In this document: in pieces, positions 2,734 to 36,051 of the stretch
Numbering within the stretch: position 1 is the stretch's first letter
Layout: each line of letters starts with the position of its first letter
Source: an uncultured Candidatus Saccharibacteria bacterium
GTDB lineage: Bacteria > Patescibacteriota > Minisyncoccia > Phycocordibacterales > UBA918
Length of the DNA: 64,000 nucleotides
Direction of reading: 5' to 3'
Assembly: GCA_964353135.1 (NCBI GenBank)
Contig: CAYGTV010000001.1
Span: 216,217 to 280,216, forward strand
The notes under the pieces: generated by a model
The model's input: only the letters and a program-made list of their open reading frames with translations
The model's database searches: none
Told to the model about the DNA's origin: nothing
Translations under genes and position numbers: made by a program

Positions 2734-3569
2734 CATACGTAGTATTTGACATCGGCGGGACAAAGACTCGCATCGCCACCTCAACTGACTTAATCAAATT
2801 TGATGAAGTGAAATCGTACAAAACCCCATCGACCTTTAATGATGGGATGAAAAAATTTGTCGAGACTGTCAAAGAAATGACCGATGAAGTGACGGCCATT
2901 GCCGGCGGAATTCGTGGACGGCTGGCAGAAGATAAGAGCGGGATAGAAAATGACGGTGTACTTACCAAATGGGCAGGGGAATCTGTGGTCGGATACCTTG
3001 AAAAAACATACGGAGATATTCCAGTCTTTTTAGAAAACGACACAGCGATTGCTGGGGTAGGCGAGGCAACCTTTGGTGCGGGAGAAGGGCTCGAGATCGT
3101 CGCGTACCACACAGTCAGCACCGGTGTCGGTGGTGCAAAAATTGAAGACGGTGAAATTGACCATGCGGATGTTGGTTTTGAACCAGGTCATCAGATCCTC
3201 GACATTGATCGGACGATATTAGGGGAAGAAATCACTCCGACATTAGAAAACATGGTGTCTGGTACAGCCATCAAACAACGTTTTGGTGTAGAGCCATACG
3301 AGATTCCACAGACTGATGTTCTCTGGGATGACTTGGCTGGCTATTTGGCTCAAGGACTGCGCAACACCATTTTGTACTGGTCACCTGACGCAATTGTGCT
3401 GGGTGGATCAATGATCATTGGAGACCCAGCGATCAAAATTGACGCCATACGCAAGGCAACAGTAGAGGCACTTGACGGCTTTGAAGATACGCCGCTGATT
3501 GTAGAAGCAAAACTAGGGGACGAGGCCGGTCTATGGGGTGGAATGGCTATTTTGGCTAAACGACTATAA
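2730..3569 (+). CDS. ROK-family sugar kinase, probable glucokinase
   Basis: N-terminal FDIGGTKTR ATPase motif, ENDTAIAGVGE ROK-like motif; adjacent to pgi. Confidence 0.75.
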   Translation: MTYVVFDIGGTKTRIATSTDLIKFDEVKSYKTPSTFNDGMKKFVETVKEMTDEVTAIAGGIRGRLAEDKSGIENDGVLTKWAGESVVGYLEKTYGDIPVFLENDTAIAGVGEATFGAGEGLEIVAYHTVSTGVGGAKIEDGEIDHADVGFEPGHQILDIDRTILGEEITPTLENMVSGTAIKQRFGVEPYEIPQTDVLWDDLAGYLAQGLRNTILYWSPDAIVLGGSMIIGDPAIKIDAIRKATVEALDGFEDTPLIVEAKLGDEAGLWGGMAILAKRL

Positions 3570-3640
3570 GCCTAGTTTAAGGTAGCGCCCCGCCTCTGGA
3601 TTTTGTATACTGAAAAGACATTATTCTTTAAGCTATTTCT

Positions 3641-4405
3641 ATGGAAGGTCTCATTATTTTAATTGTAGTAATCGGAGGAATCCTCCTTTCGTTCTTACGT
3701 GAAGTGAAGCAGTACGAACGAGGGGTGGTGCTCACGATGGGGAAGTACAGTAGTTTACGTGGACCAGGATGGAGTATCATCATTCCAATTTTTCAGGCAA
3801 TGGAAAAGGTTGACCTGCGAGTCAAAGCGGTCGATGTACCAGACCAAAAGGTAATCACCCGTGACAACGTATCTGCTAGTATCAACGCCGTGATTTACTA
3901 CAAAGTATCTGATGCTGCCCGGGCGGTTCTTGAGGTAGAGGACTTCCGGTATGCTGTCTCACAGTTGGCACAGACAACTATGCGTAACATTGTCGGTGGT
4001 GCAGAGCTCGATGAAGTGCTGGCAAACCGCGAGGAATTATCTGACAAAATCAGAGCGATCATTGATGCTGAGACGGACAAATGGGGGATCAAGGTAGATA
4101 ACGTAGAACTCAAGGATTTCTTCCTACCAGAAGACATGGAGCGAACCATTGCCAAACAAGCCGAAGCCGAGCGTGAACGACGAGCGGTAATCATTAATGC
4201 TGAAGGGGAAGTGGTGGCTGCAGAAAACATCGCTAAAGCTGCCAAAATGCTTTCGGACTCGCCAGGAGCATTGCATTTGCGTACCCTGCAAACCCTCAAC
4301 GACCTATCGTCTGACCAATCAAATACCGTTATTTTTGCGGTTCCAATCGAAGTACTACGAGCAGTAGAAGGTGCAACAGCCATGATGACAAAGATAAAAG
4401 AGTAA
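3641..4405 (+). CDS. SPFH/band-7 domain membrane protein (stomatin/HflKC-like)
   Basis: N-terminal TM helix followed by SPFH-like core (YERGVVLTMGKY...), coiled-coil C-terminus. Confidence 0.8.
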   Translation: MEGLIILIVVIGGILLSFLREVKQYERGVVLTMGKYSSLRGPGWSIIIPIFQAMEKVDLRVKAVDVPDQKVITRDNVSASINAVIYYKVSDAARAVLEVEDFRYAVSQLAQTTMRNIVGGAELDEVLANREELSDKIRAIIDAETDKWGIKVDNVELKDFFLPEDMERTIAKQAEAERERRAVIINAEGEVVAAENIAKAAKMLSDSPGALHLRTLQTLNDLSSDQSNTVIFAVPIEVLRAVEGATAMMTKIKE

Positions 4406-34016: not shown

Positions 34017-34610
34017 TTACTTTGCTACTCCAATAGTCACTCGGGCGGGGCGTAATGCTCGTTTCTCGTCGCCTTTTACTATCTGATACCCAAGCTGCAT
34101 AACTGAGAGGATTTTATCTACCAGGTCGTCGTCTACTGGTTCGGTATGTATTGCTTCGTGCAGGTTGGGGTCAAATGTTTCTCCTGTTGGATCAACTGAT
34201 TCCACTCCCCCATCGCGCAGTACCTGTAGTAGTTGGGCATAAATACCCTCAATCCCTTTACGCCAGTTTTCGTCAGCCTTCTCCCACACCTCTTTATTAC
34301 TCATCGCCATCGCAAAACTGTCAGCGAGCGGGAGTAGGTTTTCGAGATGTTGGTTGGTTTTACGTTCGATAGTTCTGATACTTTCTTCCTCCAGTCGTTT
34401 GCGGGCATTGAGAAAATCAGCTTTAACTGATGCAAGTTCTTCTAAGGCTGCTCGTTTATCTTCTTCTGCTCGTTTTAGTTTGTCTCGTAATTTTTTCAGT
34501 TTGTTTTCTTCAGCGTCTTCAATTTCAGTAATTTCCGGTTCCATCGTGTCTGTCTGTTCGTCGGTGATCTCTTCCAGTTCCTCGTTGTTTTCAATGTCTT
34601 TTTTCACCAT
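34017..34610 (-). CDS. grpE: nucleotide exchange factor GrpE
   Basis: Acidic N-terminus, coiled-coil, C-terminal GYQIVKGD...RPARVTIGV GrpE pattern; upstream of dnaK. Confidence 0.85.
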   Translation of the reverse strand: MVKKDIENNEELEEITDEQTDTMEPEITEIEDAEENKLKKLRDKLKRAEEDKRAALEELASVKADFLNARKRLEEESIRTIERKTNQHLENLLPLADSFAMAMSNKEVWEKADENWRKGIEGIYAQLLQVLRDGGVESVDPTGETFDPNLHEAIHTEPVDDDLVDKILSVMQLGYQIVKGDEKRALRPARVTIGVAK

Positions 34611-34618
34611 ACCTTTGC

Positions 34619-34647
34619 ATTATAAATCCAAATGGGGTCTGTGTAAA
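34619..34647 (-). promoter_or_regulatory. sigma70-type promoter TTTACA-17-TATAAT for grpE-dnaK-dnaJ
   Basis: Read on minus strand; consensus -10 TATAAT ending 8 nt before the grpE ATG (leaderless-like geometry, no 5' UTR for an SD); no CIRCE element seen. Confidence 0.6.
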
Positions 34648-34655
34648 GGGATATG

Positions 34656-34696
34656 AAAAAGGCGCCTCATCGGCGCCTTTTTGTTGTTGTTTTTTC
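34656..34696. terminator. bidirectional rho-independent terminator (AAAAA-GGCGCC-TCATC-GGCGCC-TTTTTGTTGTTGTTTTTT)
   Basis: Symmetric hairpin flanked by A-run and T-run; stop codon of ORF 34667..34888 lies in its loop. Confidence 0.7.
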
Positions 34697-34888
34697 GTAA
34701 ACCGATGTAGCATCTTCTACTGACTTAAACACAAACGTGAGTGTGGTTAATCCATCGTCAGTACATTGTGCGTAGTCAGGTTGTTGAGCATCTTGTTTAA
34801 GCGCAAGCGCTTTTAGTTGATACAGCAGCACATGATCTGTGATTGCAGTGGCTGTAATTTCAGCCCGGAATATTGATACCAGTAACAT
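34667..34888 (-). CDS. hypothetical small protein (73 aa, ends KRRR)
   Basis: GAGGAG RBS 7 nt before ATG; own promoter with operator-like repeats. Confidence 0.5.
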   Translation of the reverse strand: MLLVSIFRAEITATAITDHVLLYQLKALALKQDAQQPDYAQCTDDGLTTLTFVFKSVEDATSVYEKTTTKRRR

Positions 34889-34913
34889 CCTAAACTCCTC
34901 TGTTTCGCTGTCG

Positions 34914-34983
34914 ATAATACCAGAACCTCCTAATTAATCAAGATTACCAAGGTGACACCTTGGTAATGACACCTTGGTAATGA
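34914..34983 (-). promoter_or_regulatory. promoter (TTGATT-16-TATTAT) with three abutting copies of 13-mer ATTACCAAGGTGA (two direct, one inverted), candidate operator
   Basis: Plus-strand text ATTACCAAGGTGACACCTTGGTAATGACACCTTGGTAATGA immediately upstream of -35; central perfect 9-bp palindrome ACCAAGGTG-T-CACCTTGGT. Confidence 0.5.
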
Positions 34984-35012
34984 AAAGAAAACGCCCCGAA
35001 CCGTGGGGCGGT
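34982..35012 (-). terminator. rho-independent terminator for 35035..35238 ORF
   Basis: Minus-strand CGCCCC-ACGGTTC-GGGGCG followed by TTTTCTTTTC. Confidence 0.55.
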
Positions 35013-35034
35013 TTCGAAGGCGGTATAGTGCAGA

Positions 35035-35238
35035 TCAGACGCTGTTCGGTACATGCTGTGTTCTGAATGGCAAGATCTGTTCTGCCGTCTGACTGAACTT
35101 CAGACAGTTTCTTCCGTCAGAAAGAATTGTCCGCTTGACTTCTGATGAGCAGAACTTGGTTGCCACTTCAGCAACCTCACTCAGATCCCCAGAAGAAATA
35201 ATTGTTACACCAAAGTGAGATTCCGTTGGTTTCGTCAT
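35035..35238 (-). CDS. hypothetical small protein (67 aa)
   Basis: Strong RBS AAGGAGTGAACCT-ATG; followed by terminator. Confidence 0.5.
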   Translation of the reverse strand: MTKPTESHFGVTIISSGDLSEVAEVATKFCSSEVKRTILSDGRNCLKFSQTAEQILPFRTQHVPNSV

Positions 35239-35396
35239 AGGTTCACTCCTTTTCCTGATTTGAAAGTATCACAAGTAATGATTTACGCAACCCTGATATC
35301 TAAACTAGAAAAACGAGATGAGATGCGAGGAAGACAATGAAAAAGCGCCGACCGGGACAGGTGTCCAGCTGCGTATACAAATTTTGTTACATAACA

Positions 35397-35519
35397 ATAA
35401 AACCACCCGTACTTGGGTGGTTCCACTGGACGCCTGTCACTAGACTGACGTTCTTCCTCCTATCGTCCCGCCTAGACGGCATGGACGATTCCCAGCTCAC
35501 GCTGGGATCGGAGTAAACG
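35397..35519 (-). ncRNA. candidate structured small RNA, copy 2 of a tandem paralogous pair; ends in intrinsic terminator
   Basis: Shares with 35520..35635 the order: TCCGATC, GNRA-capped hairpin, 7-bp stem enclosing GCCGTCTAGGC loop, AGGAGG, GTCCA..GGAACC, terminator hairpin CCACCC-AAGTAC-GGGTGG+TTTT; stems covary between copies. Confidence 0.5.
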
Positions 35520-35635
35520 AAAACCACCTGTGATAGGTGGTTCCGTTGGACGTAATTACATGATGTAATGTTTGTTCCCTCCTATTCTCTTGCCTAGACG
35601 GCAGCGAGAATTCTGGACTCACTTCCAGATCGGAC
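35520..35635 (-). ncRNA. candidate structured small RNA, copy 1 of tandem pair; ends in intrinsic terminator CCACCT-ATCAC-AGGTGG+TTTT
   Basis: See copy 2; compensatory changes (CCACCC/GGGTGG vs CCACCT/AGGTGG; ATCGTCC/GGACGAT vs ATTCTC/GAGAAT) preserve base pairing. Confidence 0.5.
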
Positions 35636-35659
35636 AAAACGATAAACTGTTATCGTTTT
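35636..35659 (-). terminator. perfect palindromic terminator AAAACGATAA-CAGT-TTATCGTTTT overlapping rpsI stop codon
   Basis: 10-bp stem, last rpsI codons (K R stop) form the 5' arm. Confidence 0.65.
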
Positions 35660-36051
35660 GACCAAGCTGCTCGTTTTCGAGCTTTTCGTAGTCCCGGCTT
35701 CTTTCGTTCTACTGAACGTGGGTCTCGTTTGAGGAACCCTAGTACTTTGAGCACCCCTCGGCGTTCCACCTTCTCTTTTACAAGAGCTCGAGCGATACCG
35801 AGTCGGATTGCTTCAGCTTGAGCTGAGATACCTCCCCCGTTCACTTTTGCTGTGATCGTGTAGTTCTCGATTCCAGCGTCTTTGGTTTCAAGTACTGACA
35901 TGACGTCTTTTTGTAGAGCAAGTACTGGGAAGTAGTCTTCTAGTGGCTTGTCATTTACTACAACAGATGTTTTATCAGACTGTGTAAGTCGCACTCGAGC
36001 TGACGCTGTTTTACGTCGGCCGATGCCTTCAATGTATTTTGAATCAGCCAT
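35650..36051 (-). CDS. rpsI: 30S ribosomal protein S9
   Basis: C-terminal ...RKARKRAAWSKR typical of S9; follows rplM. Confidence 0.9.
   Translation of the reverse strand: MADSKYIEGIGRRKTASARVRLTQSDKTSVVVNDKPLEDYFPVLALQKDVMSVLETKDAGIENYTITAKVNGGGISAQAEAIRLGIARALVKEKVERRGVLKVLGFLKRDPRSVERKKPGLRKARKRAAWSKR

Follow-up and report, generated by a model that had tools for sequence, protein, structure and literature searches.

A family of tandem structured RNA modules directly behind rpsI in a Candidatus Saccharibacteria contig

An undescribed, narrowly distributed family of structured RNA modules, designated here type A, is represented by two tandem copies directly 3′ of rpsI, the gene for ribosomal protein S9, in a 64,000-nucleotide stretch of DNA from an uncultured Candidatus Saccharibacteria bacterium (assembly GCA_964353135.1, contig CAYGTV010000001.1, positions 216,217 to 280,216; the whole stretch is referred to as the window, and all positions are those of the window). 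The two paralogous modules, of ~120 nt each, together with a hairpin at the rpsI stop codon (H0), occupy 35395-35663 on the minus strand, as do all window features given below unless otherwise noted. Each unit consists of two abutting covarying hairpins (P2 and P3), the invariant AUAGGAGGRA, a variable hairpin (P4), the sequence CGUCCA, and a GC-rich hairpin with a U-tract. Through H0, whose pairing covaries with the codons at the end of rpsI, the first unit is in addition welded to the gene.

The gene order on this strand is rpoA, rplQ, rplM, rpsI (35650-36051), a gap of ~1 kb, grpE (34017-34610) and dnaK. The original prediction, made by a model from the letters of the window, had described a tandem pair of structured RNA elements in this gap. 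The tandem units are real, with their boundaries now corrected to about 35520-35641 and 35395-35519. Every element listed for them was found on the minus strand: TCCGATC, a GTGA-capped hairpin, (G)AAT, a stem around GCCGTCTAGGC, AGGAGG, a variable segment, GTCCA(A/G)(C/T)GGAACC, and a GC-rich hairpin followed by TTTT. The terminal hairpins are likewise real, although their length had been understated; they are actually 10-14 bp long, with the U-tract paired to upstream A/G. Units 1 and 2 are 80% identical, and the three compensatory stem differences quoted between them all exist. Folding compared with 200 shuffles gave z = −4.1 for unit 1 and z = −7.0 for unit 2, none of the 200 shuffles being as stable; for the whole region, z was −9.8. 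GCCGTCTAGGC and GTCCARYGGAACCACC occur at two sites only in the 64 kb, namely in the two units, and a covariance model run over the window with filters off returned the two adjacent copies and nothing further. No tRNA or tmRNA was found in a scan of the window.

Selection on RNA secondary structure, proposed earlier from the two copies, is borne out by unusually clean covariation across 22 distinct homologous units from related contigs. Covariation was assessed with RNAalifold and explicit pair counts, using column shuffles and slid partners as controls. In P2 and P3, 97.7% of the cells were paired, compared with 85.5% in shuffles and 31-46% with slid partners; seven pairs were changed on both sides (62 cells, versus 23 in shuffles), with up to four pair types at one position. 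P2 comprises 7 bp in the homologue alignment and is capped by GUGA or GAGA. G-U pairs are frequent, U-G being present in 10 of the 22 sequences at one P3 pair, which marks the strand of rpsI as that of the folded RNA. The P3 apex was observed as a GUCUA, CUAA or GCAA loop, as a short form, or with a 40-nt insertion. Type-A units with such an insertion of ~40 nt, including a GAAA-capped hairpin, are located at L025:418-525 and L033:6997-7103 on the minus strand (L numbers denote the related loci), and in the L033 unit AGAAGG replaces AGGAGG.

The core of unit 1, CGUUUUG-UCC-GA-[P2]-[P3]-A-GGAGGGAA, spans 35568-35641 and scored 89.2 bits (E about 1e-25) with R1, a covariance model built from 24 units. 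Within it, P2 (UCUGGA-AGUGAG-UCCAGA, 35612-35629), which has a GNRA-type GUGA loop in most homologues, shows four both-side pair changes, and P3 (AUUCUC..GCC-GUCUA-GGC..GAGAAU, 35584-35611) contains three pairs with both-side changes. The purine strand AUAGGAGGGAA (35575-35585), with its perfect Shine-Dalgarno-like AGGAGG, is invariant in 24 of 24 aligned units; AGGAGG is also kept in loci fetched via the S9 protein, that is, outside the search with the ATAGGAGG pattern. The fold places P4 (AUUACA-UCA-UGUAAU) at 35555-35569, conservation across units marks CGUCCAAC at 35545-35552, and the terminator-like hairpin GGAACCACCU-AUCAC-AGGUGGUUUU (−12.3 kcal/mol) closes the unit at 35520-35544. In unit 2 the core (35448-35519) scored 85.7 bits with R1 and contains P2 at 35490-35507, P3 at 35462-35489 and AUAGGAGGAAG at 35453-35463. 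Its P4 in the fold (ACGUC-A-GUC-UAGU-GAC-A-GGCGU, 35430-35451) is of a type that recurs in units of L010, L013, L025, L026, L029, L042 and L043, and its terminal hairpin, CAGUGGAACCACCC-AAGUAC-GGGUGGUUUUAUUG (35395-35428), is a perfect 14-bp stem (−20.3 kcal/mol, z = −5.2) that includes the U-tract.

Across the homologues, P4 always lies between AGGAGG and CGUCCA and belongs to at least four unrelated sequence types, which combine freely with the types of P2 and P3, indicative of recombination among units. The terminator-like hairpin is found 41-44 nt 3′ of AGGAGG; all 22 distinct cases have nine contiguous pairs, and several types of pair are seen at each position. Beyond its U-tract there are up to four extra pairs, which covary as well: the outer 4 bp of the terminal hairpin read CAAU/AUUG in L007, CAAC/GUUG in L009 and CAGU/AUUG in the window. 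The minimum-energy folds of all 24 units contain a three-way junction closed by (C)UCC with GGA(G), and often pair GGG(A) with the UCC of CGUCCA. For CGUCCAAC, the predicted pairings are potential ones, in which its UCC could pair with GGA of the purine strand and its AACG with the 5′ CGUU or with CGUU 3′ of the terminator.

H0 is formed by the last 14 nt of rpsI (UGG-Ser-Lys-Arg-stop) and the first 14 nt of the array. It spans 35632-35663 (−13.6 kcal/mol, z = −6.8) and is present in the minimum-energy fold of the whole region. The 5′ arm is at 35650-35663 (UGG UCA AAA CGA UAA, the stop codon being 35650-35652), the loop is at 35646-35649, and the 3′ arm, UUAUCGUUUUGUCC, at 35632-35645, is the start of unit 1; the conserved form of this arm is UUAUCGUUU(AC/UG)UCC. 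Over 15 distinct loci, 96.2% of the cells of this pairing were paired and 10 of the 14 pairs were changed on both sides. The changes on the coding side are synonymous: Ser AGU occurs with ACU, and Ser UCA or UCU with UGA or AGA; the Arg codons CGA, CGC, CGG and CGU are each met by the matching complement; Lys is AAA or AAG; and the stop codon UAA pairs with UUA, whereas UAG pairs with CUA. This is a rare case of synonymous and stop codons of a protein gene co-evolving with an arm of a non-coding RNA. In relatives that lack units, the stop codon carries no hairpin.

The same hairpin had been described in the original prediction as a separate palindromic terminator of rpsI. This description does not hold, since the 3′ arm of the 14-bp hairpin is the conserved 5′ end of unit 1, and since H0 is followed by GAUC and not by a U-tract, unlike a canonical intrinsic terminator. 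In the minimum-energy fold, UUGG of the Ala-Trp codons pairs with the CCGA of the unit and so lengthens H0, next to which P2 and P3 are retained. YUUGGA at that site is common to rpsI and to the only other context in which units were found, behind a murF-like gene, where the same 14-bp hairpin design is built on different codons. Because H0 holds the junction-closing strand of unit 1, H0 and P1, the pairing of UCC with GGA, would be mutually exclusive there; in internal units the junction-closing strand is free.

Contigs of related Paceibacteria yielded about 30 distinct homologous units, the arrays ranging from 0 to 4 units; in all but one lineage, in which murF precedes them, the units stand immediately 3′ of rpsI. 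Near-identical S9 proteins served to retrieve syntenic loci. The names borne by S9 homologues, Candidatus Paceibacteria and Patescibacteria, place the organism in the Candidate Phyla Radiation (CPR), and the exact S9 sequence was found in one other public contig only. The gap between rpsI and grpE contains no unit in L004/5, L008 and L017-24, one in L007, L009 and L013-16, and three in L010/11. In L044-L051, with S9 77-81% identical to that of the window, there are no units, and the rpsI stop codon is followed by ~45 nt and one long terminator-like hairpin. Such a stop codon with a single terminator and no units is the ancestral arrangement, and the window has the long hairpin too (about 35340-35372). 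JGI metagenomes, scanned with the exact pattern, contained 19 matching loci, against a chance expectation that we estimate at roughly two. Sixteen of the matches are located ~55 nt after the end of an S9 gene (S9 68-97% identical to that of the window), one is at a contig edge, and two (L031, L032) are cases of two tandem units directly behind a Mur-ligase (murF-like) gene. At L032:5290-5545, the only non-rpsI context, two 108-nt units lie between the murF-like gene and a downstream Usg-like family gene; a copy of the hairpin 3′ arm (CCCUAAUGGGCUUUUCCUU) forms part of the repeat, whose Shine-Dalgarno-like strand GGAGGGAG is able to pair with the downstream CCCUCUCC.

The homologue search and covariance model that had been proposed as a check recovered more copies in related arrays: model R1 extended arrays to up to four units (A-B-A-A in L025 and L033, and A-A in L027 and L030, B being a second unit type described below), and its matches in 218 kb of relatives lie inside rpsI or murF arrays only. 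The pattern scan gave no matches in viral contigs, and in GTDB representative genomes the exact pattern TGCCGTCTAGGC-N5-9-ATAGGAGG, which units with a different P3 apex would escape, gave two chance matches only (Arenicellales and Vicinamibacterales). The possibility of a dispersed repeat, against which the original prediction had cautioned, was also checked, and copies were found to be confined to one genomic position in the sequence scanned. As that prediction had also held, the units match no known family: the Rfam 15 search of the window and 14 related loci gave no match at the gathering threshold, and at E<10 gave only chance-level matches to miRNA, rimP, RNAI and Phe-leader, driven by the terminator. 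No description of the motif was found in the literature on structured RNAs in CPR bacteria or Patescibacteria. To our knowledge, the structured non-coding RNAs of CPR bacteria are almost unexplored.

How might such modules be expressed, and what might they do? No sigma-70-like promoter was found before any unit examined, and a promoter of the array within the end of rpsI was considered and rejected, there being no acceptable −10 element; grpE has a near-consensus promoter at 34619-34647. In modelled transcripts of the 24 units truncated before the 3′ arm, the 5′ arm of the terminator was mostly unpaired (mean P = 0.33) and had no common partner. These predicted folds show no antiterminator alternative, which makes a terminator-controlling riboswitch unlikely. 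The reading preferred here, with a probability of roughly 0.4, is that the units are accessory promoterless RNA modules in the 3′ untranslated region (UTR) of rplM-rpsI, modules that would each have a terminator of their own as their end and exert their effect by way of the invariant Shine-Dalgarno-like strand. Since H0 has no U-tract, unit 1 would be transcribed as the 3′ UTR of the rplM-rpsI mRNA: transcription would pass H0 and stop at the terminator of unit 1, and later units would be reached by read-through only. The 13-16-bp hairpins between modules are plausible processing sites that may free RNAs of ~120 nt. The modules would then function as RNAs whose invariant purine strand is recognised in a sequence-specific way, with a part played by the conserved junction; the partner of the purine strand could be a protein or the anti-Shine-Dalgarno sequence of 16S rRNA. 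They would not be metabolite-controlled terminators.

As H0 and the CUCC-GGAG pairing that closes the three-way junction would exclude each other in the first unit, ribosomes finishing rpsI would toggle the sequestration of AGGAGG. It is conceivable, though improbable, that this unit is a translation-sensing switch, in which a terminating ribosome melts H0 and the freed CUCC captures AGGAGG, whereas in untranslated RNA H0 re-forms and the exposed Shine-Dalgarno sequence binds the 30S subunit or another pyrimidine-rich partner. Such a switch, if true, would link the activity of ribosomes by feedback to the supply of free ones in a CPR bacterium with a reduced genome, and downstream copies and type-B units would add to the dose. 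The modular arrays, with 0-4 units of two types, suggest a dosage-variable accessory RNA function, and the tiny genomes of CPR bacteria leave scant room for non-functional DNA. If the Shine-Dalgarno-like strand binds ribosomes or a regulator, the array would be a new post-transcriptional device on a ribosomal-protein operon; otherwise, Rfam and the mining of metatranscriptomes still gain a new, well-defined RNA family.

Several points weigh against the preferred reading. P1, P5 and P0 have no covariation support, their bases being invariant. The invariance of CCGR, GWGAG, GAAT and ATAGGAGG in L025-L043 is partly ascertained, these having been fixed in the metagenome pattern; the S9-fetched loci show the same motifs, and model-only matches show a few departures (CCAAUC, CCACUC and AGAAGG). 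The units are missing from many close relatives and are therefore dispensable. Distal units behind several terminators would be poorly expressed, yet their structure is kept, which recent duplication could explain no less well than function. Base-pairing small RNAs do not usually have a purine-rich seed, and no partner protein was identified, genes for CsrA and Hfq not being seen in the DNA examined, which is a small part of the genomes.

Among the other explanations, it is possible, although doubtful, that the modules are armour for the 3′ end and an insulator, which would shield the rplM-rpsI mRNA from 3′ exonucleases and block read-through into the heat-shock operon with no separate RNA function, the copies having arisen via slippage or recombination. 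The position immediately 3′ of the stop codon, the selection of H0 to include the coding end, the strong hairpin with a U-tract that closes every unit, the varying copy number, and the single long terminator at the same place in relatives without units are all consistent with it. It leaves unexplained the invariant AUAGGAGGRA and CGUCCA, the GNRA cap, and the geometry of P2 and P3, which is kept by covariation while an ordinary terminator suffices in relatives; stabilisers of the type of repetitive extragenic palindromic (REP) elements and bacterial interspersed mosaic elements (BIMEs) are generally known as simple palindromes. That only two genomic contexts occur in the 19 metagenome matches, and that no additional copy turned up in the 64 kb, in the 218 kb of relatives or in viral contigs, makes it unlikely that the units are a selfish or neutral repeat (a non-autonomous mobile element or recombination-site cassette) targeting YUUGGA gene ends, with the structure kept for mobility. 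Comparison of filled with empty sites (L042 or L012 versus L017) revealed no target-site duplications or terminal inverted repeats, no transposase, integrase or reverse-transcriptase gene is near the window locus, the attC-type core sites RYYYAAC and GTTRRRY do not occur consistently, and the G-U pairs favour RNA over double-stranded DNA. In favour of a mobile repeat are the patchy presence among close relatives, the shuffling of modules among units, the existence of another context, behind murF, in which YUUGGA again precedes the stop codon by 12-16 nt and the 14-bp hairpin design recurs, and the location of the units at the border of a hypervariable islet that elsewhere holds genes of diversity-generating retroelements (DGRs) and of giant surface proteins.

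It is quite unlikely that each unit is a cis-acting attenuator, either a tandem riboswitch or a protein-dependent one, in which a ligand of the junction controls the terminator of the unit and sets read-through from the ribosomal-protein operon into the small open reading frame (ORF) and grpE-dnaK downstream. Tandem complete riboswitches are known, a terminator hairpin stands at a constant distance of 41-44 nt behind the compact conserved junction, and in L025, L033 and L013 the arrays are directly upstream of grpE. However, no conserved pairing competes with the terminator, the variable P4 separates it from the core, the junction has almost no unpaired nucleotides, and in first units its 5′ strand is locked in H0. 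The copy number, moreover, ranges from 0 to 4 among near-identical genomes, and the units are always 3′ of rpsI or murF and not in the 5′ leader of a coherent gene set. The downstream genes differ per lineage and are variously different small ORFs that have a promoter of their own, genes of giant surface proteins, or grpE, which likewise has its own strong promoter. The link to the downstream 67-aa ORF that the original prediction had implied is not supported, a different gene being present at that place in every relative. Coding of small proteins by the region is scarcely credible: two 46-aa ORFs (35497-35637 and 35387-35527) are open in the window, but the substitutions between copies are compensatory in stems and not synonymous, TAG closes the frame in CCUAGC-type units, the ORFs are uncalled by gene callers, and a 625-aa concatenate of six-frame unit translations had no match among 5.8 billion proteins.

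Compared with known systems, the nearest functional analogue of the modules, judged by likeness of arrangement, would be the CcsR1-4 array of Rhodobacter sphaeroides, tandem small RNAs that are cut by RNase E from the 3′ UTR of ccaF1, are promoterless, and vary in copy number between species (PMC8034643). Both arrays consist of homologous structured RNAs of ~100 nt placed head to tail behind a protein gene, without promoters of their own and with variable copy number. Hairpin loops of CcsR and the cuckoo family carry the anti-Shine-Dalgarno sequence CCUCCUCCC, whereas the loops of the present units (GNRA, GUCUA and similar) do not contain CCUCCUCCC and the invariant strand is the Shine-Dalgarno-like AGGAGGGAA, of opposite polarity. 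The present units also differ from CcsR in having a different fold, a terminator each, rpsI in place of a DUF1127 gene upstream and a stop-codon hairpin, and there is no sequence or Rfam relation. Tandem riboswitches with intrinsic terminators similarly combine a folded domain and a terminator hairpin, repeated on one transcript, but the present units have no antiterminator and no conserved downstream gene, are located 3′ of a gene, are dispensable, and vary in copy number.

REP elements and BIMEs resemble the modules in being arrays of stable hairpins just after stop codons, in numbers that vary between strains. A REP element is a short and simple palindrome that has hundreds of dispersed copies, unlike the ~120-nt multi-hairpin module, which has invariant single-stranded motifs and essentially one locus. 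Sponges of the CsrB/RsmZ type have repeated GGA motifs between hairpins and a Rho-independent terminator, and can occur as tandem paralogues. The present units share GGA-containing purine motifs between hairpins and a terminator, but each has only one or two overlapping GGA motifs, and there is no family match; a tblastn search with CsrA found no match in the DNA examined, a small fraction of the genomes. In leader-peptide attenuators, the ribosome position chooses between alternative RNA pairings. Similarly, a ribosome at the rpsI stop codon must melt H0, freeing the strand for CUCC-GGAG pairing; in contrast to such attenuators, the leader here is a full-length essential gene, and no choice between terminator and antiterminator is tied to the switch.

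Some other identities were considered and rejected. For a hammerhead ribozyme (CUGANGA ... GAAA ... UH), the junction sequences CCGRUC, GAAU and AUAGG misfit the G8/A9 equivalents, and there is no Rfam match. Type III toxin-antitoxin repeats are ~35-45 nt long and precede a ToxN-like gene, whereas the units are ~120 nt with a terminator and the downstream ORFs are mutually unrelated and belong to no Pfam family. As for integron attC sites, GTCCAAC fits R″ in some units, but a matching GTTRRRY was found only in unit 2 of L026, as ancestral flank, and no integrase is nearby. A DGR template or variable repeat is disfavoured because the differences are compensatory and not adenine-specific, with no reverse transcriptase at the window locus, and a small ORF started from AGGAGG has no conserved start codon or frame.

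A second kind of unit, type B (~115 nt), has the 5′ CGUUUACUCCGGUCC and the AGGUGGGAAC strand in common with type A, together with a different middle and its own terminator. Type-B units are located at L010:2626-2747, L012:2904-3022, L025:302-417, L033:7222-7337 and L034:170-287 (the latter two on the minus strand), L037:263-382, L042:472-592 and L043:184-300. Type B comes after type A in most arrays, is solitary in L012, and does not occur in the window. Its identity of 84% leaves too little variation for a covariation test. It has no Rfam match, and a 5S rRNA-like or signal recognition particle RNA-like identity was rejected for the same reason.

The rpsI-grpE gap beyond the units (34660-35372 in the window, with equivalents in L004-L024) is a hypervariable islet. 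What is conserved in it is the long terminator-like hairpin (about 35340-35372), some 70 nt rich in pyrimidines, and a promoter region; the small ORFs behind them differ from lineage to lineage and have no Pfam family. In the window these are ORF67 (35035-35238) and ORF73 (34667-34888). A CGCCCC..GGGGCG terminator follows the small ORF at 34992-35010. Just after the units, the islet of two relatives (L042:735-6650; L043:467-3544 and 3522-3944) encodes very large surface-type proteins, of 1971 aa and 1025 aa, and in L043 also bAvd, an accessory protein of DGRs. A conserved element of ~100 nt (..CAGCGGGUGUUUGGGAGAUACACUCAGG..GAGUGU..GACCGUCAC..), not present in the window, lies upstream of the grpE promoter in relatives (L007:3484-3600, L008:3478-3594, L009:3484-3600, L010:3345-3462, L012:3612-3732 and L013:3128-3245); the hairpin that RNAalifold predicts for it is long and imperfect and shows little covariation. 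At 34942-34987, in the space that separates ORF73 from the ORF67 terminator, two tandem copies of CATTACCAAGGTGT are followed by the inverted complement CACCTTGGTAATC.

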